A stretch of 64,000 nucleotides of DNA from Bacillota bacterium (GTDB lineage: Bacteria; Bacillota_I; Bacilli_A; RF39; UBA660): positions 19,279 to 83,278 of the forward strand of contig JAEYYH010000032.1 of assembly GCA_023430885.1 (NCBI GenBank). Reading direction: 5' to 3'. Positions 39,846 to 56,365 of this stretch are shown in pieces (position 1 is the stretch's first letter; each line of letters starts with the position of its first letter). The notes beneath the pieces are model-generated. The model saw only the letters and a list, made by a program, of their open reading frames with translations, ran no database searches and had not been told where the DNA came from. The position numbers were made by a program, and so were the translations under genes.

Positions 39846-40379
39846 TTATTTTATATAATCTTCTTTACCATATTTAATTTCAACAACTAGAGCATAAAAT
39901 TCATAAATAAATATTAAGAAACTTGGTACAAGAACTATAAATAAGAAACCCCATTTAGATTCTATTACAGATAAATAAGTACCTATATTGTTATAAACTT
40001 TACTAGCTTCACCTACTACAAATTTTGTTGAATATGTAGAACCATTTTCATAAGTAATTGCTTCATCAGCTTCATGAACTTCGCCTACTTTACCTAAATC
40101 AATACTTACGCTACCATCGCTAGCTACTTTATAAACAAATATTTCATCATCAACAGCGATTTCAGTTATTTTTCTTGATTCAACAAGTACTAAATCACCT
40201 TTTTTAAAATTATCCGAAGTAATATCGCCTTTTATTAAAATTAGAGAAGTGTCCCCAAATTGAGTAACTCCATAGTCATTATAATTTAATAGTAATACTG
40301 TCATTGCTATTGCAAAGCCAAAGAATACTACTCCTAAAACTCCTATAACAATTTTTTTAATGATCTCTAGTATCTTCAT
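39846..40379 (-). CDS. SipW-like membrane protein lacking catalytic Ser/His (possible inactive paralog)
   Basis: 177 aa with the same TM - beta-rich domain - TM topology and GD..V.V spacing as SipW, but SGSMEP replaced by FGDTSL and no ITH motif. Confidence 0.3.
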   Translation of the reverse strand: MKILEIIKKIVIGVLGVVFFGFAIAMTVLLLNYNDYGVTQFGDTSLILIKGDITSDNFKKGDLVLVESRKITEIAVDDEIFVYKVASDGSVSIDLGKVGEVHEADEAITYENGSTYSTKFVVGEASKVYNNIGTYLSVIESKWGFLFIVLVPSFLIFIYEFYALVVEIKYGKEDYIK

Positions 40380-40465: not shown

Positions 40466-41392
40466 TTAACAACCATCTGTTTCTTCAAGAGTAAATTCAC
40501 TAGCATTATACGTTGTATTAAAGCTTTTACTATAAAACATATAGCTTAAACTATCTTTCGCGTTGATATTAAACTTAATCTCATTTATGTAATTATTTGC
40601 GTCTGTATTAGCAGTACTATACTCGCTACTATCTGCATTTATTATTAATTTACTAGCGTCCCAAGTTACTTTAACGCATTTCGTAGTTGAGGAAGGATTA
40701 GTAACAATTAGTCTGTCATAATTAGAATAATTTTTATAAGATAAAGTTACATCATTACTTTTAGTACCGGCTTTATGAAGTGTAAAATCTCCACTTAAGG
40801 TTTTACTGTATGGTGTTGTGCTAGATACTGTAACATTAACTACGACATCATTAATTTCATAATTAGTATCGGTTAAAACAACATCAAAATAAAGGTTCTT
40901 TGTTACAATTTGATTAACCCAATCATACCCGTTTAGTTCACAATCTGTTTTATTAAAAGAGCTAACATCTACTTGATCACCAGTTTTATTACTACATGCT
41001 TGCAAACTAGATAAAACTCCATCCTGTGAATTTAAATCAGTACCATTCATATGGCATTCAGCATAAGCTGCTGCATCTCCTGTTACAGTACATGTGGCAG
41101 TATAACCTATATCATAATCTGTTATAACACTTTGATTAAGACTATTATTAATACTAAAGTTAATACTGCCACCATCCCACTGACTATTTGCATTCTTAAC
41201 TACAGTTCCTGAAGCTAATTGTTCACTGCTAAAGTAAAAACCTTTAGATTTCAAGTAATAATTCCAAACAGAATTTGAAATATATTTTGCAGAAGTAATG
41301 CCATAAATAACTGCTATGCTACAAACTAACAATATAGATATTAAAATTATATGTTTTTTCTTACTTTTCATAAACATCATCCTAATCTTCAA
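40466..41392 (-). CDS. secreted Ser/Thr/Asn-rich protein with signal anchor (SipW-cognate-like)
   Basis: 308 aa; h-region then GITSAKYISNS; C-terminal Cys. Confidence 0.4.
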   Translation of the reverse strand: MKIRMMFMKSKKKHIILISILLVCSIAVIYGITSAKYISNSVWNYYLKSKGFYFSSEQLASGTVVKNANSQWDGGSINFSINNSLNQSVITDYDIGYTATCTVTGDAAAYAECHMNGTDLNSQDGVLSSLQACSNKTGDQVDVSSFNKTDCELNGYDWVNQIVTKNLYFDVVLTDTNYEINDVVVNVTVSSTTPYSKTLSGDFTLHKAGTKSNDVTLSYKNYSNYDRLIVTNPSSTTKCVKVTWDASKLIINADSSEYSTANTDANNYINEIKFNINAKDSLSYMFYSKSFNTTYNASEFTLEETDGC

Positions 41393-41941: not shown

Positions 41942-44900
41942 CTATTTAACAATAAAATGTTTTTCTATTGTTCCTATCTTTTTAGTATCATCATATAATT
42001 CAAAAACAAATTTATACCCTGTATTTTCAAAACTAGCTGTTATCAAGTTTAATCCAAAACTGTTGTTTTCAGTTGGAGTAGCCGAAACATAATAAACATT
42101 TTGTGAAACTGCATTTAAATTATCGCTAACATAAGAAGCTAAATCAACAATTGTATAATCTTGATTATATGCTGTTAAATTATTTTTCTTATATAATGAA
42201 ACTCTTATATTTGGATTAATTAATAAACCATTTTGAGAAATATTAAACAAAACATTTACTGATTCACTTGTTTTATTTATTATACGATTTGTATCGTTCA
42301 TACTAGCGTTGAAACCATATATAGTATTCAAACTTGTTCTTGTTACATTAACTGGAATAAGTATATTTTGCGCACCTAGTTCGTCACAATATTCACCATC
42401 AATAGAAGTATAATTTGAAACTTTCAAATAATATGTTCCTTCTGGTAAATCATCATTATTGGCATATGTTGTTACTGTAAGAGTTTTAGTAACATCAGCA
42501 ATTCCATTATTTAGATTAATATGAATCATATTATCTGATTCAGGATAATATGTAGCATTTCCTATTTTAAATATAAAATTTTTCAAATGTGATTTTTCAA
42601 TAGTATTGCCATTGCTATCAACAAGCTTTATTAATAAACCAATTTGTTTATCTTCAAAAGTTGTGTCAACTATTTTAAAATCATTTATAAACTTATAATT
42701 TAAACCACTAGTTAAATTGATATTAGTAGTAGAATTACTATTAAATTCTATTGCATTTCCACTATAATCAGTAGTTAATGATAAAGTAGCCTTTGTATCA
42801 GTAGCATTTACTGTAGAGTATATATTAAATTTATTAATTGTATTATATAAAGTTGGTCTAACATTAATATCACTTGGGCTACGTAGTTCCATAGATAAAC
42901 TAACATCATTATAATTTACGGAAATGTCGGTATCAGCAAGATCCATAACAATTGTGAAATCCTCTGTAACTACACCATTATTATAATAAGTTGTTTCAGT
43001 ATAATAATTATTAACTGTTGCTGTCCCTATTTCTTTAAATAAAGTAAATGGATATGTTGCTTTTTTAATACAATTTAAATCTTCAACGCCACAACTACTA
43101 TTATAATTATAAATATCTGTAGCAGTTGTTATTTTATATTCATAAACTTTTTTTGTAGCATTATCTATTAAGGTTAGTTTTGTTCCTAATGGAAGAAGCA
43201 TATTTGCAACTAAGTTATGAGTATAGTCTGTTAAATTAGTTGCTTCTGAATTTGAATAACTAAAGTCTATCGTAATAGTTGATTTATCAGTTATATAAGG
43301 ATCTGCATTTAAATAACTTGAAGAGTTTCTTCCAATTACTAAATTTGACTCAGTATAACCATCTAAATTAATATAGTCAGTATTTATGTAAGTAACATAA
43401 TCAAAACTATCCACTATTTTTATATATACAACTTGTTTGCCAGTATTTTGTATTAATATTTCATTAGAATATGTAGTCCATTTATCATTAGATAATGCAT
43501 CTAATTCTGCAGTATTTAGTGAATCATTAGTAATGTAATATTCAATACTTGATACTCCTGAAATCGCATCTGATGCATCTACTGTAATAGTTTTTTGTCT
43601 ATCAATATATATACCATCCAAATTTGATTTTAAACTTGTCCACTTATAATCATCAAGATTAACACTAGCTTTTACACCCGGCAAATCTAAAACTAATACA
43701 TCAGTATTTAAATATGTAACATTATTATCATAATCTACAACTTTAACATATATAACATAAACACCTTCTGTTGTTATTTGTTCAATATCACTATATGAAG
43801 TCCATGCTGTTATTTGAGATATTTCTGTACTTGTAAGTGGTGTACTAGAATTGCTAATATAATAATATTTTTCTTTAACAGGGTTTAATTCATCAGCATC
43901 TTCAATACTAAAAGTAATATTAGAAGTTAATCTTAAGTTATTTAATTCATAACTTAAATTATTCCATGAATATGCACTTACATTTATATTTGCTATTGGT
44001 TTATTAATATCATCAATAAACAATATTGGTAATGAATCAGTCTCATATATCCATGCATTTTCATTATTTGTTACGATGTCTTGAAAATCCACGAATTCAT
44101 TAAAATGTAGAACACTTATATCTACACTTTTTGTTTTCAAGTTATCTAAGGTAGTTAATACAAAATCACCATTTGTTACTCCGCCTTTTATAGCAGAAAC
44201 ACCATTAACATAATATGAATTGGTTATATTAACATTTGAATTATATATAGTTCCAATACTATAATCTGAAGCTGATGTATTAAATGTATTACTTATTGAA
44301 ATAGCACCGGTATTATTAGATGCAATACCAATTAAACCACCAAAATTTGTGGAAGTTATATAACCAGTATTATAACTTTTTTCTATATTAATATCATTAA
44401 TACTTTTTTCGATAATACCTACTAAACCACCGCTTATATAAGTACTTTTAATATTACCAGTATTATAAGATTGATTTACACTAGTTGAATTATTAGTAAC
44501 CCCTACTAAACCCCCACTAATTGAATAACCATATATAGAACCTTTATTTATTGTATTTTCTATTGTTGTATTGTTAGAAATTGCAACTATACCTGCAGAA
44601 ACTGCGTATTTATAGGCAATGTTATAACTTAAATTAGAGAAAGTCAATGTATCCCCTTCAGTTGCATTAGTATATGTCAAAACAGGCACATTATTTAGTA
44701 TATTAGTACCTAAATCAATTGAAAAGTTTCCGCCTGTTACTACTTGTCCATTTATAGTAATCGTAGCATCAGCACCATTTAAACCATCAATAACATAGTT
44801 ACCAGTAATTGATGTTGAAACAATCTCTGCACCAGTTAAAGGAATATTATTTGTTAAATCTATATAATTTGTTGTCTCATAATTTTGCATGTTTATTACA

Positions 44901-45640
44901 GGAGATGCTGGAGTACTACTAATATTCTTTGAGTCTAAAGTACTTTTACCAACTACATAACCATCAAATAAAATATTACTTAATGAAGCATTATTAGTTT
45001 TAGACGCAATACCTGCTGTTATTGTCCCACCATATATCATAGCATTTTCAACATATAAATTTTTAACTTCACCTTGTAAATTAGTAAATAGAGCTAATTC
45101 TTCACTAGTTTCATTAGTCATATATAAACCATATATTCTAAATGAATTACCATTAAAAATACCCTTAAAATTATTTAGTGAATTAAATAAATTAACTGTT
45201 CCTATTTCTGTACCAGTCATATCCACATTATCATAATATTTATTAGTATAAGGATTAACATAATATGTATGTCCGTCTAAAATATAGTTTATTTTATTAT
45301 TTTCATCATAATTAAATACGCCATTATTTATTACAATGTCGTTACTTAAAGTAAAATATGTATTATCGTAATCATTAGTTGCAAGCTGAGAATAAAAATA
45401 TGCTAACTCTGAACCTGAAGAGATTAAATATGGGTCACTAGATGAACCAGTACCACTTTTATAACTGCTAGCTACACTTCCATCCCATACAGGATTAGTT
45501 ATTAAAGTATTTCTATTTTTATATCTTGCTAAAGTTGGTATACCTACGGATAATATTAAAGCAAATATTAATATTAAAACCAAATAAGTAATTTTTTGAG
45601 TTTTTGATAATTTATTAATAAAATCTATTATTACTTTCAT
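41942..45640 (-). CDS. giant secreted surface protein with GLUG-motif repeats
   Basis: 1232 aa; signal anchor; repeated SGGLVG / FGGLIG blocks (GLUG motif), Asn/Thr/Tyr-rich beta-rich body; first gene of a four-gene operon. Confidence 0.55.
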   Translation of the reverse strand: MKVIIDFINKLSKTQKITYLVLILIFALILSVGIPTLARYKNRNTLITNPVWDGSVASSYKSGTGSSSDPYLISSGSELAYFYSQLATNDYDNTYFTLSNDIVINNGVFNYDENNKINYILDGHTYYVNPYTNKYYDNVDMTGTEIGTVNLFNSLNNFKGIFNGNSFRIYGLYMTNETSEELALFTNLQGEVKNLYVENAMIYGGTITAGIASKTNNASLSNILFDGYVVGKSTLDSKNISSTPASPVINMQNYETTNYIDLTNNIPLTGAEIVSTSITGNYVIDGLNGADATITINGQVVTGGNFSIDLGTNILNNVPVLTYTNATEGDTLTFSNLSYNIAYKYAVSAGIVAISNNTTIENTINKGSIYGYSISGGLVGVTNNSTSVNQSYNTGNIKSTYISGGLVGIIEKSINDINIEKSYNTGYITSTNFGGLIGIASNNTGAISISNTFNTSASDYSIGTIYNSNVNITNSYYVNGVSAIKGGVTNGDFVLTTLDNLKTKSVDISVLHFNEFVDFQDIVTNNENAWIYETDSLPILFIDDINKPIANINVSAYSWNNLSYELNNLRLTSNITFSIEDADELNPVKEKYYYISNSSTPLTSTEISQITAWTSYSDIEQITTEGVYVIYVKVVDYDNNVTYLNTDVLVLDLPGVKASVNLDDYKWTSLKSNLDGIYIDRQKTITVDASDAISGVSSIEYYITNDSLNTAELDALSNDKWTTYSNEILIQNTGKQVVYIKIVDSFDYVTYINTDYINLDGYTESNLVIGRNSSSYLNADPYITDKSTITIDFSYSNSEATNLTDYTHNLVANMLLPLGTKLTLIDNATKKVYEYKITTATDIYNYNSSCGVEDLNCIKKATYPFTLFKEIGTATVNNYYTETTYYNNGVVTEDFTIVMDLADTDISVNYNDVSLSMELRSPSDINVRPTLYNTINKFNIYSTVNATDTKATLSLTTDYSGNAIEFNSNSTTNINLTSGLNYKFINDFKIVDTTFEDKQIGLLIKLVDSNGNTIEKSHLKNFIFKIGNATYYPESDNMIHINLNNGIADVTKTLTVTTYANNDDLPEGTYYLKVSNYTSIDGEYCDELGAQNILIPVNVTRTSLNTIYGFNASMNDTNRIINKTSESVNVLFNISQNGLLINPNIRVSLYKKNNLTAYNQDYTIVDLASYVSDNLNAVSQNVYYVSATPTENNSFGLNLITASFENTGYKFVFELYDDTKKIGTIEKHFIVK

Positions 45641-45764
45641 AATTACCCTTCCTTCATAAAAAAATTATAGGACTTAGTATACTTTATATAAATTATTATA
45701 TCATAATATGACATATTTTGCACCACAAATATAACTTGCAATATATACAAAAAGAAACTCCTTT

Positions 45765-47432
45765 TTAAGAAGTTTCTTGCTCTTTTTTCTTTTCATTTAC
45801 ATTGATTTTTTCAACCTGAGCCATGAACCAGATCTTTTCAACTGTCGTTGAACTTTTCTCAATTTCATTTACTCTTAATAAGAATAAAATCTTATTTAAT
45901 AGTGTCTCTAATTCATCTGGATTTAAATTTTCTTCATTAAGATTAATATTATCCAGTCTATATTTATTCATGATAATTCTTGTAATATTTGTCTCTTCGA
46001 ATACTGCAACACCATTAATTATTATATTAGTTGGATTCATTGCAAATAAATCAAATTCATCACTATACTTTGCTACTTCTTCATGAACTGTAGTATTAAA
46101 TGCAGTTTGTATTGCCTTTTTTTTAAAGTAATCAAAACTATAATATAAGTGTAACAAATCAGATACAGTTAAAGAATCATTTAGTACTTCCATAACTTTT
46201 TCTTTAAAATATTCTTGAGCATAAATTTTATATAAATCATATAATTCCTTGGCAATTTTTATTGAATCAATTTTTAGTTTCTTTACAGCAGCACCTTTTG
46301 AAAAATCAAATAATAGTGGTTCACCACCAAATATTTTTTTATTCATTTTTTCAAGTTGTGATTCTTTTAAAGAAATTTTTGCTAGAGTTTCTTTTAGTGT
46401 TTTATTAGGATTATTTTTATCATTACTTCCTTTAGTAGAAGAAGATTCAACTTTTGTAATTTCCTTTTCATACTCTTTCCTAAAATTTTCAATTAATGGA
46501 GTGAATTTTATATAATTATTATATTCTTCAACATTGTTTTTTAATTTTCTTAGGGTATCATAAAACTTATCCATAAATGCTTTATCTGATATATTTGAAG
46601 AGTTAATCATTAATGAGTTGTACGCACCTATTCTTGTCTTGCTATCTTCAAAATAACTATTCATATCAATAGCTCCTGATTTAGCTAATTTTATAATATC
46701 TGCTACACTTTCACTATCTACTTCATTTAATTGATTATAAGCAATTTTAAGTTTATCTAAGCAATCTTGATAGCTAGTAATACTATTTTCAACCATTACT
46801 TTCTTTTGCAATTTATTAATATAATCTGTGAATTTTTTCTCATACTTATTAATTAATTTCAGAAAATTTAGTTCTATATGCTGAATTATTTCAGGATTGA
46901 CCCAATAAATTTTTTCAAATACTTCTGATAACTTATCACAACTACATTCTTTTGCATTTTTATTTTCCAAAAAGCATGTCATATATTCATGAACATAACA
47001 TGTATAATCAAAATCGCTACTTGTAAGTTTAATATCTGCTGATTCAAATTTTATTAAGAACTGATTAATTACTTCATTTAAAGAATCAAAATTAAAGTTA
47101 TAATAATTGCTTATTTCATAGATTAAATTATCAAAGCCAAGTTTTTCATTAACTGTATTTGTTGGATTTAGGATAAATCTAACATGCTCGAGTTCAGTTA
47201 CATTTCTATTTAGTTTTTCTAAACTTTTATCACTGTCTTTTACATTAAAACTTTTGCTCTTTGTATCAATATATTTTTTGACAGCAGCTTTATAATCAAC
47301 ATATTTTTCTGTAATTGAATCTATTTTTTCATTGAATTTCTTAATGTCTCTTTTTGTATTAGTTGGCATTGTAGAAATTAAGGTTGTTTTCATTTCGATA
47401 TCTTCGTCAATAAACTTCAAAAAATTAATCAT
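45765..47432 (-). CDS. hypothetical cytoplasmic protein
   Basis: 555 aa, no TM, KE-rich helical. Confidence 0.4.
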   Translation of the reverse strand: MINFLKFIDEDIEMKTTLISTMPTNTKRDIKKFNEKIDSITEKYVDYKAAVKKYIDTKSKSFNVKDSDKSLEKLNRNVTELEHVRFILNPTNTVNEKLGFDNLIYEISNYYNFNFDSLNEVINQFLIKFESADIKLTSSDFDYTCYVHEYMTCFLENKNAKECSCDKLSEVFEKIYWVNPEIIQHIELNFLKLINKYEKKFTDYINKLQKKVMVENSITSYQDCLDKLKIAYNQLNEVDSESVADIIKLAKSGAIDMNSYFEDSKTRIGAYNSLMINSSNISDKAFMDKFYDTLRKLKNNVEEYNNYIKFTPLIENFRKEYEKEITKVESSSTKGSNDKNNPNKTLKETLAKISLKESQLEKMNKKIFGGEPLLFDFSKGAAVKKLKIDSIKIAKELYDLYKIYAQEYFKEKVMEVLNDSLTVSDLLHLYYSFDYFKKKAIQTAFNTTVHEEVAKYSDEFDLFAMNPTNIIINGVAVFEETNITRIIMNKYRLDNINLNEENLNPDELETLLNKILFLLRVNEIEKSSTTVEKIWFMAQVEKINVNEKKKEQETS

Positions 47433-47577
47433 TTTTTTCTTCCACCTTCTCTTCTTGTACTATTTTTTTATCTTCGAGAAATTGTAAGAAATTAGTTATA
47501 TCTTCATAAACCTTAATTAATTCACTTAAACTAAGTGTTGATATATCAAAATTCACTTTTTCTTCTTCTTTTTTCAT
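47425..47577 (-). CDS. small acidic protein (50 aa) translationally coupled to 45765..47432. The ORF track does not list this ORF.
   Basis: ATG at 47577 with RBS aagggtga; MKKEEEKVNFDISTLSLSELIKVYEDITNFLQFLEDKKIVQEEKVEEKND; stop overlaps downstream ATG (ATGATTAA). Confidence 0.3.
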   Translation of the reverse strand: MKKEEEKVNFDISTLSLSELIKVYEDITNFLQFLEDKKIVQEEKVEEKND

Positions 47578-47597: not shown

Positions 47598-48776
47598 TTA
47601 ATTATAACCCGATAAATCTTTTATGAAATTAATTGCAATAGTAATAGCAGCACCTTTTGAATATGTTTCTAAGCTATCTATATCTTGTCCTTCAATCCAA
47701 ACATAAGCTCTTACTTTTGTTATACCACTTGGAATTTGAAAGATTGGATTTGTAAATGTAGTAGTTGTCTTTTGCAAGGCAAAATGCTCTGTATCAAGTG
47801 GTATACCTGTACCTTCTTGTCCATTTGAATGTTGAAGATTTCTTCCTTCATTTATAATGGCATATGTTGGATTGTATGTACCATCCACCAAAGTAATATC
47901 GCTTTCTTTAGCTGTCTTAATAGATCCTTCAGAATGCGCTGTACTATTAGGTTCATAAATAACCATTTCGCAATTATTATTGCATACAATATTTTGAATA
48001 TTGTTAACACTTGATTTTAAAGGAACACTTCCTACTTTTATAAGACCTATTCTCATAGAATTCATTATTCCACTCATAGAATCAATAATATCTTCTTTTG
48101 TTGCTTCATCTGTGTCAGCATATTTATTATAATCAAAATCAATAGCAGTATCATCATCAAAATACAGATTATCGCTTAGTGGTGAACCACTAACATTTTT
48201 TAAAAAGATATCAAATGCAATGTAAACATTAGCAGCTGATGAGTTATTTTGATCAACTAATGTCGTATTTAATAATCGTTCACCTGGAACAATCTTTTTC
48301 TTATTTTTAACTATTTCTCCTACATAGACATCAAATTTATCACTATTAGAATTTGGAATTCCAATAGTTGAAACAGGCCATAAACCGGCTGAAGCCCACT
48401 GATTAGTGTTGGTTGGATATTTATTCTCTAAGTCTTTAATTACACTATCTAGAGATATCTCAACTGAATCCGAAAAGTCAATACCGTCAAGTGAAATAAA
48501 TAATCCACTGTTACTAGATACGGACATATCAAGAAATTTAACTTTAACATTTAAGGATGCAGATAACCAAGCGTATGAAGAAACTATTAACAAAATACCA
48601 GTAAAGAAAATAATAAATATTAATAATCTAGGATCTATTTTCTTTATTCTTATTCTTTGACCTTTTAGTATTTTTCTAACACTTTTCTTCTTTCCTTTAT
48701 TATTAATCTTTTTCTTGTTTTTAGAATTACTATTTTTCTTTACTTTTAAATTTTCTTTCGTATTTTGTACGGTCAT
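47598..48776 (-). CDS. secreted TasA-like paralog 1 (SipW-cognate signal SSYAWLSA)
   Basis: Start taken at second Met (GAGGTG RBS); very basic n-region, h-region, SYAWLSASLNVKVKF; divergent homolog of the three downstream paralogs, lacks the DUF5011 tail. Confidence 0.5.
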   Translation of the reverse strand: MTVQNTKENLKVKKNSNSKNKKKINNKGKKKSVRKILKGQRIRIKKIDPRLLIFIIFFTGILLIVSSYAWLSASLNVKVKFLDMSVSSNSGLFISLDGIDFSDSVEISLDSVIKDLENKYPTNTNQWASAGLWPVSTIGIPNSNSDKFDVYVGEIVKNKKKIVPGERLLNTTLVDQNNSSAANVYIAFDIFLKNVSGSPLSDNLYFDDDTAIDFDYNKYADTDEATKEDIIDSMSGIMNSMRIGLIKVGSVPLKSSVNNIQNIVCNNNCEMVIYEPNSTAHSEGSIKTAKESDITLVDGTYNPTYAIINEGRNLQHSNGQEGTGIPLDTEHFALQKTTTTFTNPIFQIPSGITKVRAYVWIEGQDIDSLETYSKGAAITIAINFIKDLSGYN

Positions 48777-48802
48777 AAAGCACCTCATTCAAAATATAAA
48801 TA

Positions 48803-48828
48803 AAGAGTAACCAGCTTTGATTACTCTT
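48803..48828 (-). terminator. terminator hairpin after paralog 2, only 27 bp before start of paralog 1
   Basis: aagagtaa-N10-ttactctt, T-rich after on minus strand. Confidence 0.5.
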
Positions 48829-48905
48829 AATTATCTTAATAATAACTAATTACTAACATAACCACTAGTCAGTATTATTTAAATATTAAATTTTATCAAT
48901 CATTA

Positions 48906-50366
48906 TTATTTAACAATTACAGTTCTTGTTTTAGTGCCTACGTTTCCTGCTGCATCAGTTACTGTATATGTTATTGTATAAGTTCCTGCTTCTGCAGTAT
49001 TAACTGTACCTGTTATTGCGATATTTTCTGTAGCAATATCGCCATCTCTAGCATCCTTAGCAGTTGCTCCTGGTTCAACATAAGTTCCACCAACAGCTAA
49101 TGTCATAGGATTTGCTCCTTCTAATGAGATAACTGGTCTTTCAGTATCTGGAATAGTTGGTCCGTTATAATGGATATCATCCTCAGTATATCTTTCTTTA
49201 GTGAATCCAAAATTTACAGAAATTTTCTTACCAATTGAAGCAAAGTCATAGTTATCTATATCTTGTCCTTCAATATAAATATAAATTCTAATTTTTGTAA
49301 TACTATTTGGAGCTAAAGTCATAAATGTTGGACGAGCAGTTCCAGTATAACCTTTCATTGTATCAGTAAAATATGGATATGCTGTTAACTTAGCACTTGA
49401 TGTGTAAGTGTTATATTCAGCACCATCGTAAACATCTACATTGTCACCTGAATCTATATCAGTACTTACAGCATATGTTGGATATGCATGATCATCTGCA
49501 ACAGCACCACAGCCTCCTGCTGAAGGATATGATAAATCTAATGTAACGTCTAAACCAGTTCTTGCTTTACAAGAAGTAGTGTACCAACTAATTGCATTTG
49601 CAACATGATCTATATCATTTGGTTCCCAAATTTGAGCTGTTCTACAAATACCTGTTACACCATCAGCAATTGATGGTTTTGATTCAGCATTTGCATTACA
49701 ATTAATACCTGTAATCTTTGCTACATCAGTAGTAGTTCCTGCAACACGCCCTATTTGAGCGAATGCTACTCTTACAGAGTTTTCAATACCAGTGTTTTCA
49801 ACACCTGTAGCAGCCACTTTTACTGCAGAATCTGTAGTCAAATAAATTGCTTCTTCATCTAGTGGTTCTAAAGCTTCTAGATATTGTGTACCTGAGAAGT
49901 TTTTAACAAATAAATCAAATGCAACGTATCCATCTTGTTCAGCAGGTAAAGCTTCCTCACCTACTTTATAGTTTTTAACACGACTTGCCATAAGTCTGTA
50001 ACCACCAGGTGTTGTTGTTAAACTTGCTTTCTCAAACAATTGCATTCTTGAAGATTTAACATCCATAGTACCTATAGATGAAACTGGAAATAATCCTGCT
50101 CCACCCCAGTTATTAGTGTTTCCTTCATAAGAATTAGAATCTACGGTTGCTTGTGAAATTTGTACTGTTGTATCCCATGTTTGTCCATTTAAAGATAATA
50201 ACAAACTATCAGTTGAAGCTATTTCAACATCAAAACTTGATACATTAACAGTTCGCATACCAATAAACCATGCGTATGTTGAAACAGATAAAATTACAGC
50301 AGTTAAAGAAAAAATAAAAATAAGGTTTCTAATGCGTTTTCTACGCATTTTACTTTGTTTTGGCAT
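48906..50366 (-). CDS. secreted TasA-like paralog 2 with C-terminal DUF5011 Ig-like domain
   Basis: Start at MPKQSKMRRKR (RBS present; the longer listed ORF is conserved leader); signal LSVSTYAWFIGMRTVNVSSFDVEIAST; C-terminal PVISLEGANPMTLAVGGTYVEPGATAKDARDGD...GTYTITYTVTDAAGNVGTKTRTVIV. Confidence 0.55.
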   Translation of the reverse strand: MPKQSKMRRKRIRNLIFIFSLTAVILSVSTYAWFIGMRTVNVSSFDVEIASTDSLLLSLNGQTWDTTVQISQATVDSNSYEGNTNNWGGAGLFPVSSIGTMDVKSSRMQLFEKASLTTTPGGYRLMASRVKNYKVGEEALPAEQDGYVAFDLFVKNFSGTQYLEALEPLDEEAIYLTTDSAVKVAATGVENTGIENSVRVAFAQIGRVAGTTTDVAKITGINCNANAESKPSIADGVTGICRTAQIWEPNDIDHVANAISWYTTSCKARTGLDVTLDLSYPSAGGCGAVADDHAYPTYAVSTDIDSGDNVDVYDGAEYNTYTSSAKLTAYPYFTDTMKGYTGTARPTFMTLAPNSITKIRIYIYIEGQDIDNYDFASIGKKISVNFGFTKERYTEDDIHYNGPTIPDTERPVISLEGANPMTLAVGGTYVEPGATAKDARDGDIATENIAITGTVNTAEAGTYTITYTVTDAAGNVGTKTRTVIVK

Positions 50367-50385
50367 AAATACATCTCTCTCTCTA

Positions 50386-51078
50386 TTATCCAACAAATTC
50401 AGAATTAAAATCCATGTGAATTTTAATTTCTCCTCCAAGAATGTTATCAGTGCATTCTGGATCAGTTCCTTCTAACCATAAGACTATTGTATATTTGTTT
50501 TTATCACCAGGTTTAAAGTCAACTACATGTTCATGAGCAATAAGGGTATCCGTTTCAAAAGCAACCGTTTCTTTTTCTGGATTCCCGTTACTAGACGCCT
50601 TAGCGTAGGTAATATAATTACCGTTCTTATATACTCTAATTCTTACAGCATCGTCAAGATTTTTTATAACATCATCAATAATTATTTCAGACCAATAATC
50701 AGATGGAGTATCGCCTAGATTTTCAATATAAAAAGTGTAGGCAACGTAATTATCACCGTTGTGAGATCCGCCTTCAAAATTGTCAATGTCTTCTGGAAGC
50801 CACTTATAGGAAATATTATCAAAGCTTTCAACAATTGGTGCATATAGCTCTGTTCTAAATACTTTATAGTTAGAATCATCATAAATAACAATATTATTTT
50901 CTAAATATAAGTTCCTATCTAGTGTAATACTGAAATTACCATTGTTGTAAATAACCCTAACAACAATGTATAAGATAAGTAACAATAGTGTGAAGAAAAG
51001 TAATACTAATTTAACAATTTTCGTTATTTTTTTCTTATGTTTTCTTTTGCCAGCTCTAGCTATAATTTCATTATTCAT
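50386..51078 (-). CDS. secreted/membrane-anchored 230-aa protein co-transcribed with paralog 2
   Basis: Basic n-region, TM, beta-rich body; shares promoter/leader architecture with paralog 3. Confidence 0.4.
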   Translation of the reverse strand: MNNEIIARAGKRKHKKKITKIVKLVLLFFTLLLLILYIVVRVIYNNGNFSITLDRNLYLENNIVIYDDSNYKVFRTELYAPIVESFDNISYKWLPEDIDNFEGGSHNGDNYVAYTFYIENLGDTPSDYWSEIIIDDVIKNLDDAVRIRVYKNGNYITYAKASSNGNPEKETVAFETDTLIAHEHVVDFKPGDKNKYTIVLWLEGTDPECTDNILGGEIKIHMDFNSEFVG

Positions 51079-51149
51079 TTCCTACCCATGTCCTTTATGT
51101 GTAACTTCACAGAATATTCATATGCATATATAGATACCCTACTATAATA

Positions 51150-51186
51150 TACAATATTATTGTAACATAGTCTAAAACATAATTCA
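51150..51186 (-). promoter_or_regulatory. sigma-A type promoter (TTGAAT-17-TGtTACAAT)
   Basis: On minus strand: -35 at 51181..51186, extended -10 at 51158..51163 plus TG. Confidence 0.45.
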
Positions 51187-51220
51187 ACATTTTTTTCACT
51201 ACAAGTATTATTTAATTTAC

Positions 51221-51255
51221 ATAAAAATAAAAGAGTAATCACACCGATTACTCTT
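51221..51255 (-). terminator. rho-independent terminator after paralog 3
   Basis: aaagagtaatc-acacc-gattactcttt then T-tract on minus strand. Confidence 0.6.
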
Positions 51256-51291
51256 TAATATTTTAACAATAATTAATTATTAATATAATAA

Positions 51292-52779
51292 TTATCCTGT
51301 TATTATAACTGTTCTAGTTTTAGTACCTACATTTCCAGCTGCATCAGTTACTGTATAAAGTATTTTATATGTTCCTGGTACTGCTGCATTTACTGTTCCT
51401 GTTTTAACAATACTTGTTGTTAAATTGCCATCTTTGTTGTCTGTTGCAGTTGCTCCTGCATCTGCATAATCGCCAGGAAGATCACTCTTAGGCTGAGTTA
51501 CTACACTATCACCAACTAATGTGATTACTGGTACAGTCTTATCTGCACTTGCAGTAGCATCAGGGCCTTCACCTTCGTTTAAATCTGGTCCATTATAATT
51601 GATATCATCTTCAGTATATCTTTCTTTAGTGAATCCAAATTTAACAGAAATCTTTCTACCAATTGAAGCAAAATCATAGTTATCTATATCTTGACCTTCA
51701 ATATAAATATAAACTCTAACTTTTGTGATACTATTTGGAGATAAAGTCATAAATGATGGACGACTTGTACCTGTTAATAATTTCATAGTATCTGTAAAGT
51801 ATGGGTAAGCTGTTAATAATGTTGAAGATGGAGTTCCAACAAAACTATTATATGTTCCACCATCATAAATATCAACATTGTTAGCAGAAGTTATATCATT
51901 ATTTATTGCATATGTTGGATATGCTATACCATTTGTTAAAACTCCGCAACTTCCAGCATAAGCACTGCTTAATGTAACATTATCACCATCTGGTGATGCT
52001 AATCTCTTTTTACAAGAAGTATTATACCAACTAATAGCATTTGCTACATGGTCAGTATCATTTGGTTCCCAAATTTGGGCTGTTCTACAAATACCTGTTA
52101 CTGCGCTATCACTAGTACAAGTAATACCTGTAATTGTTGATGCAGTAGTAGTCGTCCCTGCAACACGTCCTATTTGTGCGAAAGCCACCCTTACTGAATT
52201 TTCAATACCTGCTCCATCTACTCCACCGTTTAAACCAGCTTCTGCTACTGTAACTGCAGAATCATTAGTTAAATAAATTGCTTCTTCATCTAATGGTTCT
52301 AAAGCTGGAAGATATTGTGTACCTGAAAAGTTTTTAATGAATAAGTCGAATGCAACATATCCATCTTGTTCAGGTTTTCCATCATAGTTGTTAACACGAC
52401 TTGCCATAAGTCTATAACCACCAGGTGTAGAAGTTAAACTTGCTTTTTCGAATAGTTTCATTCTTGAAACAGTCGAGTCCATGGCACCTACTGAAGATAC
52501 TGGGAATAAACCAGCTCCACCCCAACTATTTGTGTTGCCTTCATATACAACAGCTGGATCATTAACAGTTCCTTGTGAAATGGCAACAGTTGTGTCCCAA
52601 GTTGAACCATTCAATGATAGTAATAAGCTGTCTGTAGAAGCTATTTCAACATCAAAGCTTGATACATTAACGGTTCTCATACCGATAAACCATGCATATG
52701 TTGAAACAGATAAAACAACAGCCGATAAAGAAAAAATAGCGATAAGATTTCTTAGGCGTTTTTTGTTTTGTTTTGGCAT
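51292..52779 (-). CDS. secreted TasA-like paralog 3 with C-terminal DUF5011 Ig-like domain
   Basis: 495 aa; MPKQNKKRLRNLIAIFSLSAVVLSVSTYAWFIGMRTVNVSSFDVEIAST; C-terminal PVITLVGDSVVTQ...GTYKILYTVTDAAGNVGTKTRTVII. Confidence 0.55.
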   Translation of the reverse strand: MPKQNKKRLRNLIAIFSLSAVVLSVSTYAWFIGMRTVNVSSFDVEIASTDSLLLSLNGSTWDTTVAISQGTVNDPAVVYEGNTNSWGGAGLFPVSSVGAMDSTVSRMKLFEKASLTSTPGGYRLMASRVNNYDGKPEQDGYVAFDLFIKNFSGTQYLPALEPLDEEAIYLTNDSAVTVAEAGLNGGVDGAGIENSVRVAFAQIGRVAGTTTTASTITGITCTSDSAVTGICRTAQIWEPNDTDHVANAISWYNTSCKKRLASPDGDNVTLSSAYAGSCGVLTNGIAYPTYAINNDITSANNVDIYDGGTYNSFVGTPSSTLLTAYPYFTDTMKLLTGTSRPSFMTLSPNSITKVRVYIYIEGQDIDNYDFASIGRKISVKFGFTKERYTEDDINYNGPDLNEGEGPDATASADKTVPVITLVGDSVVTQPKSDLPGDYADAGATATDNKDGNLTTSIVKTGTVNAAVPGTYKILYTVTDAAGNVGTKTRTVIITG

Positions 52780-52939
52780 AATTATTATCTCTCCTTCTTT
52801 TTTTATAAGTATAAAATTAAAAATTGGTATTTTTCTTAATTTTCCACTTATGTCTTACCAATAAAATAAACCTGTCATCTTTGTAATTTCACGATATACA
52901 TTTGAATAAATTCATATGTATATTTCGCTACCCTATACA

Positions 52940-53010
52940 ATTTATATTGTATCATAAGCAGGTAAATTGTCAATACAATTTATTTTTTTTGTCAAAAATT
53001 GTCATGTTGA
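52940..53010 (-). promoter_or_regulatory. promoter of paralog 3 (TTGACA-16-TGaTACAAT) preceded by tandem TTGACAA repeats
   Basis: Minus strand: catGACAAtttTTGACAAaaaaaataaattgtaTTGACAatttacctgcttaTGaTACAAT; -35 at 52968..52973, -10 at 52946..52951; leader about 160 nt. Confidence 0.5.
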
Positions 53011-53092
53011 ATGTACCGATTTTTAAATGTTTTTTGTGTAAAATATATCATTTTATAATATAAAAAATGCTTTATCTTTATATCATGAATAT

Positions 53093-53130
53093 AAAATAAA
53101 AAGATAGTAACTCTTTCGAGATACTATCTT
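53093..53130 (-). terminator. rho-independent terminator after paralog 4
   Basis: aagatagta-N12-tactatctt with T-tract on minus strand. Confidence 0.55.
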
Positions 53131-53167
53131 TAGGTTGTTTTATATTAAACTTTATTGTTTATTATAG

Positions 53168-54646
53168 TTATTGAACAGTTACTGTTCTAGTTACTTGATC
53201 AGCATAGTTACCAGCCCAGTCACTAACATTGTAAGTTACAGTATATACGCCTGCTTTACTTGTGTCTACTGGATTAATAACATGAATTTTTGCTGTCATG
53301 TTTGTATCTTCATTGTCTGTTGCTGTTGCTCCAGCATCCTCATAAGTACTTCCTAGATCAACTGTTATAGCACTATTACCATTTAATGTAATTACTGGTT
53401 TAACAGTATCTGTACTTGCATTTAATGGTGGATTTCCACTGTAAACATCAGATTCAGCATATCTTTCTTTAGTGAATCCAAATTTAACAGAAATCTTTTT
53501 ACCAATTGAAGCAAAATCATAGTTATCTACATCTTGTCCTTCAATATAAATATAAATTCTTACTTTTGTAATACTATTTGGAGATAAAGTCATAAATGTT
53601 GGTCTATTTGTTGATGTCTTCATCTTCATAGTATCAGTAAAATATGGGAATGCAGTTAAGTATGCACTACTTCCTGTAAAAGTATTATAATCTTCGCCAT
53701 CATAAATATTTACATTATTTGCAGAAGTAATAGCACTACCTATAGCATATGTATCATAAGCATTAGTATTTGTTACAGGTAAACAATTTCCTTCATAAGA
53801 TTCTGCTTTTGTAACATCACTTGTTTGTCCCTCTAAAACTGCTTTTCTTGTTTTACAAGAAGTTGTATACCAACTAATAGCATTTGCTACGTGTTTAGTA
53901 TCATTTGGTTCCCAGATTTGAGCTGTTCTACAAATACCTGTTACATCACTATCAACAGCTGGATTACAAGTAATTCCAGTAATTGTTGATGCATTAGTAG
54001 TAGTTCCTGCAACACGTCCTATTTGAGCGAAAGCTACTCTTACTGAGTTTTCAATTCCTGTTTCACCAACTCCACCAGTTTCTGCTACTGTTACTGCAGA
54101 ATCTGTAGTTAAGTAAATTGCTTCTTCATCTAATTCATTTAATGCTTTAATATATTGTGTACCTGAAAAATTCTTAATGAATAAGTCAAATGCAACATAT
54201 CCATCTTGTTCAGCAGTTAGTTTGCCTTCTCCATCTGTTTGATAATTATTAACACGACTTGCCATAAGTCTATATCCACCAGGTGTAGAAGTTAAACTTG
54301 CTTTTTCGAATAGTTTCATTCTTGAAGCTGTGTTATCCATAGCACCTATTGATGAAACTGGAATTAATCCGGCTCCACCCCAAGTGTTAGTGTTTCCTTC
54401 ATATACAACATCTGTATCATTAACGTTTGCTTGTGAAATATTTACTGTGGTATCCCATTTTTGACCATTAAGAGATAACAATAAACTATCAGTTGATGCT
54501 ATTTCAACATCAAAGCTAGAAACATTAACAGTTCGCATACCAATAAACCATGCATATGTTGAAACTGATAAAATTATAGCTGTTAAAGAAAAAATAACAA
54601 TAAGATTTCTAACGCGTTTTGAGCGTAGTTTCTTTAGTTTTGGCAT
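53168..54646 (-). CDS. secreted TasA-like paralog 4 with C-terminal DUF5011 Ig-like domain
   Basis: Start at MPKLKKLRSKR (RBS aggaagagag); VSTYAWFIGMRTVNVSSFDVEIAST; C-terminal PVITLNGNSAITVDLGSTYEDAGATATDNED...GVYTVTYNVSDWAGN. Confidence 0.55.
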   Translation of the reverse strand: MPKLKKLRSKRVRNLIVIFSLTAIILSVSTYAWFIGMRTVNVSSFDVEIASTDSLLLSLNGQKWDTTVNISQANVNDTDVVYEGNTNTWGGAGLIPVSSIGAMDNTASRMKLFEKASLTSTPGGYRLMASRVNNYQTDGEGKLTAEQDGYVAFDLFIKNFSGTQYIKALNELDEEAIYLTTDSAVTVAETGGVGETGIENSVRVAFAQIGRVAGTTTNASTITGITCNPAVDSDVTGICRTAQIWEPNDTKHVANAISWYTTSCKTRKAVLEGQTSDVTKAESYEGNCLPVTNTNAYDTYAIGSAITSANNVNIYDGEDYNTFTGSSAYLTAFPYFTDTMKMKTSTNRPTFMTLSPNSITKVRIYIYIEGQDVDNYDFASIGKKISVKFGFTKERYAESDVYSGNPPLNASTDTVKPVITLNGNSAITVDLGSTYEDAGATATDNEDTNMTAKIHVINPVDTSKAGVYTVTYNVSDWAGNYADQVTRTVTVQ

Positions 54647-55070
54647 AAATACATCTCTCTTCCTATTTTCGACTATTTTTACCATAAACATTTTATATAT
54701 GTTTATGGATCTTGCTTCTAACTATAAGACATGTTGTAGTTTAATTCTATTACCTATTTTAAGTTCTTCTAAATACTTTTGTATGACAGGTTTAATCAGT
54801 TCAAAAGAAATTATATCTTTTTCAAGAATCAATTATTAGAGGATTTGAAATAAGTAACTTAATTACGGCCTTCGTGAATTCTTTTTTCTTACAGTTTATT
54901 GACTATTTTTTAATATCACCAATAATTTTCGCAATTATTATTGATTGTAATAAAAAATTGTCACTATTATAAACAATACAAACGACAATAATATAGTCTC
55001 GTTATTCACGTTTTGCATGGTGACTTTTTATGTCACCAATCATAATATCTTTATCGTAGTATACATTCAC

Positions 55071-55135
55071 ATTTTATCACAAATAGGCAAGTTGTCAATA
55101 TGGTTTAACATTTTTTGTCAAAATTTGTCAAAGTA
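55071..55135 (-). promoter_or_regulatory. promoter of paralog 4 (TTGACA-17-TGaTAAAAT) preceded by tandem TTGACAA repeats; about 440-nt leader
   Basis: Minus strand: ctTTGACAAatttTGACAAaaaatgttaaaccataTTGACAacttgcctatttgTGaTAAAAT; -35 at 55094..55099, -10 at 55071..55076; the same architecture as 52940..53010. Confidence 0.5.
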
Positions 55136-55262
55136 AAATTTTGAAGTTTTAGTGTTTTTTGGATTAAATTTTTATGAATAATTGATACTATAATAAAAAA
55201 AACAATCTAATTGAAGTGAACCCAATTTAGTAGACAAGAAATAAAAACAGTTTCTTGTTTTT

Positions 55263-56012
55263 TTATAAAAGACGAATTCTATCTGTATTATAAAATGATA
55301 TCCAATTAATTACAAGTTCTATGTAATTTTCTAAAGATATGATATCATTGTTATAGAGAGTTTCTTTCTTTAATATTGAATGAAAACTTTCCATTGGTGA
55401 ATCATCAATAGGAGTTCCTTTTCTGCTCATAGAGATTGTTATTCCATTAGATTCGCATATTTTTTTATATTGATAAGATGTATATTGAAATCCTTGATCA
55501 GAGTGGATTATCAAACCTTTTACATCTTGTCTTTTTTTTATTGCCTCATTCAAAGTATCTATAACTAATTTATTGTCATTTCTATTACTTATTTTATAGG
55601 AAACAACTTTTCTGTCATATAGATCTAAGATTGTAGATAAATAAGCTCGTTTATTTCCAAATATCAAGTAAGTAATATCAGTAGTCCATATTTTGTTAGA
55701 AGTTTCCACTTTGAATTTTCTATTAACTAAGTTTGGTTTAACGTTTTCTTCAATTCTTTTATAATTGAATGGTTTAATTCTTTTCATATAAATAGGTTTA
55801 ATATTATATTTTGACATCAATCGTCTAATCTTTTTGTGATTTATAATTACGCCATATTTTATTTTTAAGCCTTCCTCAATTCTTCTATATCCATAAGTCC
55901 ATTTGGATTCATCAAATATATTTTTAATCAATAAATAATCATAGTAATCATTATCTACTTTATATCTATATTTATAATAATTTTTAATACCTATATTTAA
56001 TACATCGCACAT
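55263..56012 (-). CDS. IS3 family transposase OrfB (DDE integrase core); coordinates from first Met, true frame extends upstream via frameshift
   Basis: 249 aa; rve/DDE core (IIHSDQGFQYTS...), typical of IS3 OrfB. Confidence 0.8.
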   Translation of the reverse strand: MCDVLNIGIKNYYKYRYKVDNDYYDYLLIKNIFDESKWTYGYRRIEEGLKIKYGVIINHKKIRRLMSKYNIKPIYMKRIKPFNYKRIEENVKPNLVNRKFKVETSNKIWTTDITYLIFGNKRAYLSTILDLYDRKVVSYKISNRNDNKLVIDTLNEAIKKRQDVKGLIIHSDQGFQYTSYQYKKICESNGITISMSRKGTPIDDSPMESFHSILKKETLYNNDIISLENYIELVINWISFYNTDRIRLL

Positions 56013-56053
56013 ATTAATTAATTTGTATCTATTTATATTTAAATTGATGAATG

Positions 56054-56365
56054 TTATCTTTTCCCTTGTCGGGATTCTTTGAGGAAGGCTTGGAAGTTTT
56101 TTAGTATTTCATATCTTTCTTTATAATCAATCTCCTCGTTTCCTTTAGGTCTTCCTTTTTTATTATTTAAAGTATTCCCTTTACGAATTTGATAAGCCCA
56201 CATCCTTATCGTATTATTTGATATTCCGTATTCTCGTTCTAATCCACCCGAAGAATAACCAGCATTTAACTTATTAACTATCTCCGCTCTTTTCTCTGGT
56301 GAATACTTTTGATATTTTTGTCCTTTTCTTGCCATAACTATCACTCCTTTATTTAATTTTAACAT
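56054..56365 (-). CDS. IS3 family transposase OrfA (HTH)
   Basis: 103 aa; MARKGQKYQKYSPEKRAEIVNKLNAGYSSGGLEREYGIS helix-turn-helix; ends just after slippery heptamer. Confidence 0.8.
   Translation of the reverse strand: MLKLNKGVIVMARKGQKYQKYSPEKRAEIVNKLNAGYSSGGLEREYGISNNTIRMWAYQIRKGNTLNNKKGRPKGNEEIDYKERYEILKNFQAFLKESRQGKR

Follow-up and report, generated by a model that had tools for sequence, protein, structure and literature searches.

Background

The closest described counterpart of the genes treated here is the TasA system of Bacillus, whose tapA-sipW-tasA operon comprises three genes and joins a major fibre subunit to a low-abundance partner and a dedicated signal peptidase. In the wider TasA superfamily, which includes AbpA, AbpX, the CanX/CanA cannulae and the Saci_0406 threads, genes for dedicated peptidases of the endoplasmic reticulum (ER) or archaeal type likewise adjoin the subunit genes, and the archaeal filaments of this group are calcium-dependent (cannulae preprint). 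We investigated a 64,000-nucleotide stretch of contig JAEYYH010000032.1 from a Bacillota bacterium, hereafter the window, in which a sequence-only reading had described positions 47598-54646 as four tandem TasA-like paralogs, comparable to families of surface or fibre subunits.

A second described type of system bears on the same locus. CoCoPALM systems were named by Bell et al. in a paper whose accessible parts defer their analysis, link such GTPases to signal-peptidase proteins, and mention neither a subunit family nor arrays of paralogs nor an RNA element (PMC11090510). The text of the supplement adds nothing, and our literature searches found no follow-up on CoCoPALM.

The present analysis makes it somewhat probable that an extracellular fibre or pilus-like structure has three of the paralogs as its major subunits, either alternative or co-assembling, and the fourth as a conserved minor subunit. 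The locus appears to be a variation on the SipW-dependent fibre theme, with an unannotated subunit family and a tie to CoCoPALM, its functions being predicted; it is more interesting in this context than as a simple array of paralogs.

Results and discussion

Three major paralogs and one minor homolog

Keeping the numbering of the sequence-only reading, we term paralogs 4, 3 and 2 MAJ and paralog 1 MIN1. The array reads as follows, with lengths in amino acids (aa):

53168-54646, minus strand: MAJ paralog 4, 492 aa; signal peptide, core of ~370 aa and PF16403 immunoglobulin (Ig)-like tail
51292-52779, minus strand: MAJ paralog 3, 495 aa; same architecture as paralog 4
50386-51078, minus strand: s230, an N-terminally anchored protein of 230 aa, between paralogs 3 and 2
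48906-50366, minus strand: MAJ paralog 2, 486 aa; same architecture as paralog 4
47598-48776, minus strand: MIN1, 392 aa; distant homolog that lacks the Ig tail and begins with a Lys-rich extension; orthologous group present in single copy

For all four homologs the lengths agree with a public gene call made on the same metagenome scaffold. The near-identical N-terminus that had been attributed to all four is a property of paralogs 4, 3 and 2, whose pairwise identity is 71-74% across the whole protein and 78-80% across the core (71-80% being the overall range quoted). It does not extend to MIN1, which is ~34% identical to MAJ and has in common with it only a YAW motif and the general layout, even though the two profiles are clearly related (hhalign probability 100%). 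Rather than a fourth equivalent copy, MIN1 is a distinct minor homolog, whose orthologous group is represented once per locus. Its start is the ATG at 48776, with the ribosome-binding site GAGGTG upstream. MIN1 and its orthologs carry a Lys-rich extension of ~45 residues before the hydrophobic helix (residues 1-45 in MIN1), a region of low confidence in the AlphaFold2 (AF2) model; as this is unusually long for the n-region of a signal peptide, MIN1 could stay membrane-anchored.

The DUF5011-type tails noted earlier in three paralogs are confirmed. PF16403 (Bact_surface_Ig-like, formerly DUF5011) is matched at full length by the last ~70 residues of paralogs 2, 3 and 4, which score 83.8, 61.5 and 76.3 bits where the cutoff is 27 (E-values of 8e-17 to 9e-24), and a Pfam scan finds no such tail in MIN1. 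In contrast to what the DUF5011 label might imply, this domain is merely a tail, and the N-terminal part of ~400 aa is the conserved and defining part of the MAJ proteins. The array is also not strictly tandem, since the s230 gene splits paralogs 3 and 2. This protein is a conserved partner, encoded before a MAJ gene in most related loci, and it is probably co-transcribed with paralog 2. We considered s230 as a fifth paralog, which could not be established: its similarity to the MAJ C-terminus is limited to the last ~40-47 residues, with an hhalign probability of only 7-10%.

The family to which these proteins belong is large. Among the candidates scored, paralog 3 has more than 3,000 homologs and paralog 1 has 743, and an exhaustive profile search at E<=1e-3 yields 1,446 clusters (50% identity), of which 229 reach E<=1e-30. 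All named family records come from metagenome-assembled genomes (MAGs), and the proteins, if they have a name at all, are called hypothetical or "DUF5011 domain-containing". Literature searches turned up no description of the MAJ/MIN1 family, the CoCoPALM mention being the sole link. One family member (P0258, 1017 aa) combines the MAJ core with four repeated modules of ~90 aa and a Gly-rich C-terminus, indicating that the core can carry very different display domains.

Constant ends and a variable centre

For comparison we assembled related loci, 80 from a scan of species-representative genomes and one from a 1.49-Mb chromosome. They hold 1-4 MAJ copies each. The pairwise ratio of nonsynonymous to synonymous divergence (dN/dS) among the MAJ copies of the window, which the earlier reading had proposed as a check, is 0.24-0.39 with dS of 0.5-0.7; this points to old, intact copies under purifying selection. 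The closest relative lies in the same locus for just 13 of the 144 MAJ copies that have a same-locus paralog, so that the duplicates appear to be mostly old and maintained.

Constraint is unevenly spread along the proteins. Over codons 31-60 (YAWFIGMRTVNVSSFDVEIASTDSLLLSLNG) all MAJ pairs are 100% identical in protein, with dS of 0.58-2.1. Such synonymous divergence marks the identity as the product of constraint; gene conversion, which we had entertained as a cause of the identical N-termini, is ruled out by the same values (0.6-2.1). At codons 271-300, dN rises to 0.36-0.56 and equals or exceeds dS in two pairs out of three, and the Ig tail too varies among the paralogs. Invariant residues are concentrated in the YAW motif close to the N-terminus and in R..EGQD.D..G close to the core's end. 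Family alignments moreover show an invariant E-G-Q-D-x-D near the core end and two invariant cysteines (C221 and C231 in paralog 3), which suggests a metal site, possibly for Ca2+, and a disulfide. By length, 93 of 158 MAJ homologs (>=450 aa) are probably tailed, and the other 65 (~40%, <450 aa) probably lack the Ig tail.

Signal peptide, fold and relationship to TasA

Several features recall TasA. The predicted end of the signal peptide is STYA-WF in MAJ and SSYA-WL in MIN1, compared with TWA-AFND in TasA. The SipW substrate TasA is marked by W at P2 and F at P2' (PMC10269814), and STYA-WF parallels this with an aromatic residue at P2 and Phe at P2', so that the predicted MAJ signal peptide, like that of TasA, would end in T-aromatic-A followed by x-F. 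An hhalign comparison superposes the two motifs, with a score that is not significant. Like the TasA system, the locus pairs a major subunit with a low-abundance homolog or partner, at least as we interpret MIN1. The connection to SipW proposed in the sequence-only reading is upheld by two SipW-type peptidase genes in the cluster, both above the TIGR02228 cutoff; encoding such a dedicated SipW/archaeal-type peptidase together with the subunits is a trait of the TasA superfamily, and here the linkage is conserved in the related loci. In addition, the neighbour p183 resembles TasA's N-terminal half at the profile level (hhalign probability 87.5%, E=3.6e-6, 77 columns). The genes are:

34067-34651, minus strand: SipW-type signal peptidase I, 194 aa, SGSMEP...THEV; TIGR02228 74.5 bits, cutoff 51.85
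37337-39592, minus strand: SipW-type signal peptidase I (N-terminal ~160 aa) with a C-terminal region of ~580 aa; TIGR02228 71.8 bits, PF00717
41382-41933, minus strand: p183, small secreted protein with TasA-like N-terminal half (hhalign)

The AF2 models are confident, with a predicted local distance difference test score (pLDDT) of 87.2 for paralog 3 and 85.8 for MIN1, and each has a helix at the N-terminus and then a core rich in beta structure. The best fold matches of this core are weak and lie among archaeal TasA-superfamily filaments, the first three having been assigned to the "TasA superfamily" in bioRxiv 10.1101/2024.12.30.630787. A Foldseek search against the PDB returned nothing significant for the core models, and thus no significant solved filament subunit.

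Direct membership in the TasA (Peptidase_M73) family, as the earlier label had it, finds no support at the sequence level. PF12389 is matched neither by the four paralogs at E<=0.01, nor by their neighbours, nor even at E<=10 by any of 90 family members; an alignment of 90 MAJ/MIN1 sequences compared by hhalign with one of 50 TasA sequences gives a probability of 0.2% (E=0.31), confined to the signal-peptide region; and PDB sequence searches with the MAJ/MIN1, p210 and p183 profiles gave nothing real, the matches to a designed repeat protein being spurious. The MAJ core thus differs from TasA in having no sequence-profile relationship to it, and also in size, at ~370 aa compared with 261 aa for full-length TasA, and in often bearing an Ig tail. 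The present locus has several major paralogs, and in contrast to the TasA operon it spans ~17 genes, including two peptidases, a degenerate peptidase homolog, a giant surface protein and an McrB-like/DUF2357 pair. "TasA-like" is therefore a label that holds by context only.

Two other pilus types were examined and rejected. Sortase-assembled pilins do not fit, as the C-termini (...TRTVIVK, ...TRTVIITG, ...TRTVTVQ) have no LPXTG motif and there is no sortase among the scanned cluster genes; nor do type IV pilins, as the N-termini lack the G/F-x-x-x-E motif and the cluster has no prepilin peptidase or PilB-type ATPase.

A conserved hairpin at the junction of major and minor genes

The spacer between the last MAJ gene and MIN1 contains two conserved elements:

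48803-48828, minus strand: conserved hairpin, AAGAGTAATC-loop-GGTTACTCTT; putative attenuating terminator, folding z -2.9
48851-48874, minus strand: second conserved intergenic element, TACTGACTAGTGGTTATGTTAGTA, 24 nucleotides (nt), a small hairpin

The stem of the first ends 27 nt before the MIN1 start codon, and 70 of 76 related loci keep the hairpin. In its outer stem (AAGAGTAA...TTACTCTT) the sequence itself is conserved, which is unusual for a terminator. Within 1.2 Mb of loci the strict motif is found 55 times, 40 times at the MAJ-MIN1 junction and otherwise mostly just behind other MAJ genes; the window has it twice, where chance would predict none. In an alignment of 30 sequences 99.1% of the cells are paired, and four pairs are changed on both sides (11 cells), a figure reached by none of 500 shuffles. 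A conserved U.G pair points to an RNA stem on the coding strand. The more distant loci, with MAJ-MIN1 spacers of 49-80 nt, retain little besides the hairpin and a ribosome-binding site. These data lend support to the earlier proposal that read-through of this hairpin would limit expression of paralog 1, and the element may be a candidate cis-regulatory RNA. Compared with Rfam at E<=1, the 41-57 kb region matched no family, the sole match being a chance one to a small RNA, inside a coding region.

The second element lies ~22 nt upstream of the junction hairpin in the closer loci (L001-L049), and its pairing is backed by one-sided changes alone. In its loop, the sequence (GTGGTTAT) is similar to the junction hairpin's 3' arm (TTGGTTAC), making an alternative pairing conceivable.

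Promoters, leaders and terminators

Sigma-70-like promoter sites were scanned over 15 kb. The signals found around the paralogs are:

55071-55098, minus strand: predicted promoter of paralog 4, TTGACA-16-TAAAAT with TG
52946-52973, minus strand: predicted promoter of paralog 3, TTGACA-16-TACAAT with TG
51159-51187, minus strand: predicted promoter of the s230-paralog 2 unit, TTGAAT-17-TACAAT with TG
53100-53131, minus strand: terminator hairpin after paralog 4, folding z -4.9
51230-51256, minus strand: terminator hairpin after paralog 3 (AAAGAGTAATC...GATTACTCTTT), folding z -3.6
45752-45778, minus strand: terminator-like hairpin at the end of p555
54703-54927, minus strand: decayed s230 copy within the paralog 4 leader (blastn)

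The promoters of paralogs 4 and 3 are the two best matches in the scanned region. Their surroundings are homologous (77.8% identity over 72 nt), and the paralog 3 leader similarly aligns with the region upstream of s230 (74% over 54 nt). When the three promoters of the window and the upstream regions of s230 are compared over 50 loci, a conserved TTGACA-N11-TATGnTAnAAT emerges, followed by GTATAnTA at the predicted start. A semi-conserved leader segment lies 3' of GTATAnTA in the aligned regions. Inspection of 55071-55140, 52946-53010 and 51159-51200 also showed that, for paralogs 4 and 3, two additional TGACAA copies lie upstream of the -35; their place is taken in several related loci by a CGACAAAAA element, which could be a regulator-binding site.

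The intrinsic terminators described after paralogs 2, 3 and 4 are indeed found: in each case a hairpin with a T-rich tract behind it folds better than shuffled sequence (z -2.9, -3.6 and -4.9, respectively), and these predicted elements thus have the stable stem-loop and U-rich tract at a gene's 3' end that characterise Rho-independent termination. The leaders of 160-440 nt attributed to paralogs 3 and 4 stand as to length, since the predicted promoters imply ~160 nt and ~418 nt, respectively, but find no support as regulatory leaders. What they contain is the conserved promoter and, in paralog 4, pseudogene debris: 54703-54927 is 65.5% identical to the 3' half of s230 over 232 nt (blastn, E=1e-5), with stops in all frames, and hence most of this "long leader" is the remnant of a duplicated s230-MAJ unit.

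Directly upstream of the paralog 4 promoter is an IS3-family element (55263-56365, minus strand):

56054-56365, minus strand: IS3 orfA (HTH_Tnp_1)
55263-56012, minus strand: IS3 orfB (rve integrase core)

Its insertion is strain-specific, as a close relative (L084) with the same three-copy layout lacks it and has dacA followed directly by the promoter region. An inverted repeat surrounds the paralog 4 promoter (54818-54837 and 55177-55196; 20 nt, 80% complementary, 339 nt between the arms); it is AT-rich and may be a chance match. An invertible promoter switch for paralog 4 was considered and is unsupported, with this single repeat to build on and no invertase gene nearby.

A conserved cluster with an McrB-like/DUF2357 pair

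The array belongs to a cluster of ~17 genes that recurs in ~80 genomes, usually in the order s230, MAJ (1-4 copies), MIN1, s50, p555, p1232, p183, p308, p177, the S24 peptidase fusion, AAA509, DUF2357, SipW, p409, p210, with the order of modules permuted in some. In a distant locus from a human-gut metagenome (L086) the MAJ proteins are 27-29% identical to those of the window, and most components are kept, including three MAJ-like genes and s230 (45% identical) as well as AAA509 (53%); this locus has no p1232 or p308 homolog. The genes that tie the cluster to CoCoPALM are:

35811-37340, minus strand: AAA509, with N-terminal hydrophobic segments, a Walker A motif and weak McrB AAA+ similarity
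34661-35794, minus strand: DUF2357 (McrC N-terminal domain) protein; PF09823 E=1.5e-11, 44.5 bits, cutoff 23.3

AAA509 shows two hydrophobic segments and then a charged stretch (residues ~85-135), as read from the sequence by eye, where CoCoPALM GTPases have an N-terminal transmembrane plus coiled-coil (FtsB-like) fusion, and it has the Walker A motif GISGTGKT. It matches McrB structures weakly over residues 195-372 (phmmer E=0.005) and has no match to Pfam AAA_5. With 61-74% identity over full-length matches in the related loci, it is among the most conserved of the cluster proteins. HMMER aligns its GTPase signature GTINNDDS without a gap to the NTAD of McrB, so that NxD-D and NxxD are equivalent readings of AAA509; its N-N-D-D set beside the NxD signature of CoCoPALM is likewise compatible with either NxD or NxxD. 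The PF09823-containing DUF2357 gene adjoins AAA509 wherever a related locus reaches that far, and both are linked to members of the signal-peptidase family in the cluster and in the related loci. A McrB-like AAA+ protein with N-terminal hydrophobic segments, a DUF2357 gene next to it and a conserved association with signal-peptidase-family proteins are the properties by which AAA509, DUF2357 and the peptidases fit the CoCoPALM type of system. The subunit family, the paralog arrays and the RNA element are where the locus departs from the published description, so far as its accessible parts go.

A filament model and its alternatives

On the fibre reading, MAJ proteins would be exported by Sec and their signal peptide removed by the SipW-type peptidases of the cluster, probably after STYA, to give the new N-terminus WFIGMRTVNVSSFDVEIAS... 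The polymerisation interface would be built from the conserved N-terminal strand and the likewise conserved strands at the C-terminal end (R..EGQD.D..G), possibly through donor-strand complementation, with the variable central loop and the Ig-like tail facing outward, and through this common interface the paralogs could co-assemble or substitute for each other. Paralogs 4 and 3 would be monocistronic, each having a strong conserved promoter and its own terminator; these signals are observed, and their function is our proposal. The s230-paralog 2 unit would end in the conserved hairpin, partial read-through of which would feed MIN1, s50 and p555 and keep them sub-stoichiometric. MIN1 and the other small secreted proteins might then serve as low-abundance initiator, anchor or tip components. 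The subunit genes co-occur with the McrB-like/DUF2357 pair in the ~17-gene cluster, and a CoCoPALM-type role of that pair would complete the scheme. The MAJ proteins are very probably abundant secreted structural subunits in separate transcription units, in line with the surface or fibre subunit family originally suggested.

The arrangement finds a parallel in pilin and flagellin genes (papA in the pap operon; flagellin paralogs), where a highly expressed major-subunit gene is followed by a hairpin and then by minor-subunit and assembly genes, and where conserved termini, the presumed interface, flank a variable exposed centre. It differs in that neither the protein family nor the route of export is related, and in that the hairpin stem is here conserved in sequence across distant genomes, as is unusual for plain terminators.

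Several observations weigh against this reading. Neither the core nor the N-terminal part of ~400 aa as a whole has a match in Pfam or NCBIfam, the N-termini match no NCBIfam signal-peptide family even at E<=10, and the comparison with the TasA profile gave the negligible probability reported above. The U-tract 3' of the junction hairpin is often interrupted (TTTAATTAT), so that termination there may be partial, and a weak promoter-like site, TTGATA-17-AATACT (9/12), lies upstream of the hairpin. Polymerisation and cleavage of MAJ and MIN1 are, finally, what we infer, and their expression is read from signals in the DNA. The paralogs might instead be surface proteins that do not polymerise, i.e. 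an adhesin or an S-layer-like coat, anchored by an uncleaved helix or released as monomers, with the Ig tail as the binding part and the copies providing binding or antigenic diversity instead of fibre subunits. This would suit the PF16403 tails, which are typical of bacterial surface proteins, the strong separate expression signals of each gene, the central region in which two MAJ pairs of the three have dN equal to or above dS, and the absence of a significant Foldseek match to a solved filament subunit. We nevertheless regard it as unlikely: strict conservation of the 30 residues after the predicted cleavage site, at high dS, is hard to explain for a simple anchor; ~40% of the MAJ homologs probably have no Ig tail; MAJ is constantly accompanied by a minor homolog in single copy, by dedicated SipW-type peptidases and by small secreted proteins, of which one is TasA-like; and the best fold matches, weak as they are, are filament subunits. 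That the paralogs are true TasA/camelysin (Peptidase_M73) members, building biofilm-matrix fibres as in Bacillus, is very improbable. The nearby SipW-type peptidases and the T-aromatic-A/x-F signal motif would agree with it; the failure of 90 members to match PF12389, the hhalign result, the longer core and a ~17-gene locus with an McrB-like module, unlike the three-gene operon, do not.

The regulatory part of the fibre reading has a rival of its own, in which the junction hairpin is an efficient terminator or an element for mRNA stabilisation or processing and MIN1, s50 and p555 have their own promoter, or in which everything is carried on one long transcript. We consider this rather doubtful. 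The weak site between paralog 2 and the hairpin could supply such a promoter, the sequence conservation of the stem, beyond structure alone, suggests recognition by a factor, and a second conserved element lies just upstream. However, that site is the single candidate in the spacer, and we rejected it since its -35 is not conserved in the related loci; the short spacers of distant loci offer little but the hairpin and the ribosome-binding site; and the U.G pair and compensatory changes speak for a stem formed in the RNA of the coding strand. As for the wider cluster, the McrB-like and DUF2357 proteins could form an ordinary type IV restriction system beside unrelated surface genes, as the weak McrB similarity and the DUF2357 domain would allow, the cluster then not being one system. 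We find this scarcely credible, as the pair is linked to the peptidases, MAJ, MIN1, s230, s50 and p555 in dozens of genomes, a linkage that survives rearrangement of the modules and recurs in a distant lineage, as AAA509 has its N-terminal hydrophobic segments, as the Pfam scan detects no nuclease domain in the DUF2357 protein, and as Bell et al., in the accessible parts of their paper, independently link such GTPases to signal-peptidase proteins (PMC11090510).

Taking the fibre reading further, we tentatively raise the possibility, on balance not the expected outcome, that the cluster encodes an undescribed class of bacterial filament. It would have a new subunit family, related distantly if at all to TasA, and SipW-type processing; a membrane McrB-like NTPase with a McrC-like partner would be coupled to its assembly, anchoring or turnover, and a two-hairpin RNA would set stoichiometry or be recognised by a factor. 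If so, a restriction-enzyme motor would have been recruited to the biogenesis of a surface structure. The tie between the family, the SipW-type peptidases and the McrB-like/DUF2357 module provides the CoCoPALM class with a concrete candidate substrate and a hypothesis open to test, namely a filament whose polymerisation strand is conserved and whose exposed parts vary. The matter deserves attention also because a large subunit family is unannotated apart from its tail domain, in carriers whose cell surfaces are almost unstudied.

Other cluster members and hosts

The remaining genes of the cluster are:

47425-47577, minus strand: s50, acidic protein of 50 aa, usually directly after MIN1
45765-47432, minus strand: p555, 555 aa, conserved partner of s50; no hydrophobic segment seen in its N-terminal region
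41942-45640, minus strand: p1232, surface protein of 1232 aa with the same N-terminal signal type (GIPTLA-RY); candidate tip or adhesin
40466-41392, minus strand: p308, homolog of p183 (hhalign probability 94.7%)
39846-40379, minus strand: p177, signal-peptidase homolog of 177 aa without the SGSM catalytic serine motif (hhalign against the SipW194 family, probability 95%)
32792-34021, minus strand: p409, secreted protein with TLAWF signal motif (MIN1 against the p409 N-terminus, probability 89%)
32059-32691, plus strand: p210, small secreted protein with STYS-RY motif; conserved cluster member on the opposite strand

When every cluster protein was scanned with Pfam and NCBIfam, the only matches were PF16403, S24/SipW, DUF2357 and the IS3 transposase. 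Similar signal motifs recur among the secreted members: TLAWF in p409, STYS-RY in p210, ITYS-IF in p183, ITSA-KY in p308 and PTLA-RY in p1232. The degenerate peptidase homolog p177 is conserved in nearly all related loci and may be a pseudo-enzyme or an assembly factor. The ~580-aa region of the peptidase fusion includes an acidic repeat stretch, has no Pfam match, and is encoded by a gene separate from the peptidase in L086.

The hosts are Bacilli of low GC content that are uncultured, carry the labels Bacilli, Mollicutes or Erysipelotrichia, include the one chromosome of 1.49 Mb, and stem from anaerobic digesters, the rumen, and animal and human guts. Many carrier MAGs (L002, L003, L004, L016 and others) are labelled 'uncultured Muribaculaceae', 'Ignavibacteriales' or 'Actinomycetes', probably through errors of taxonomy or binning.

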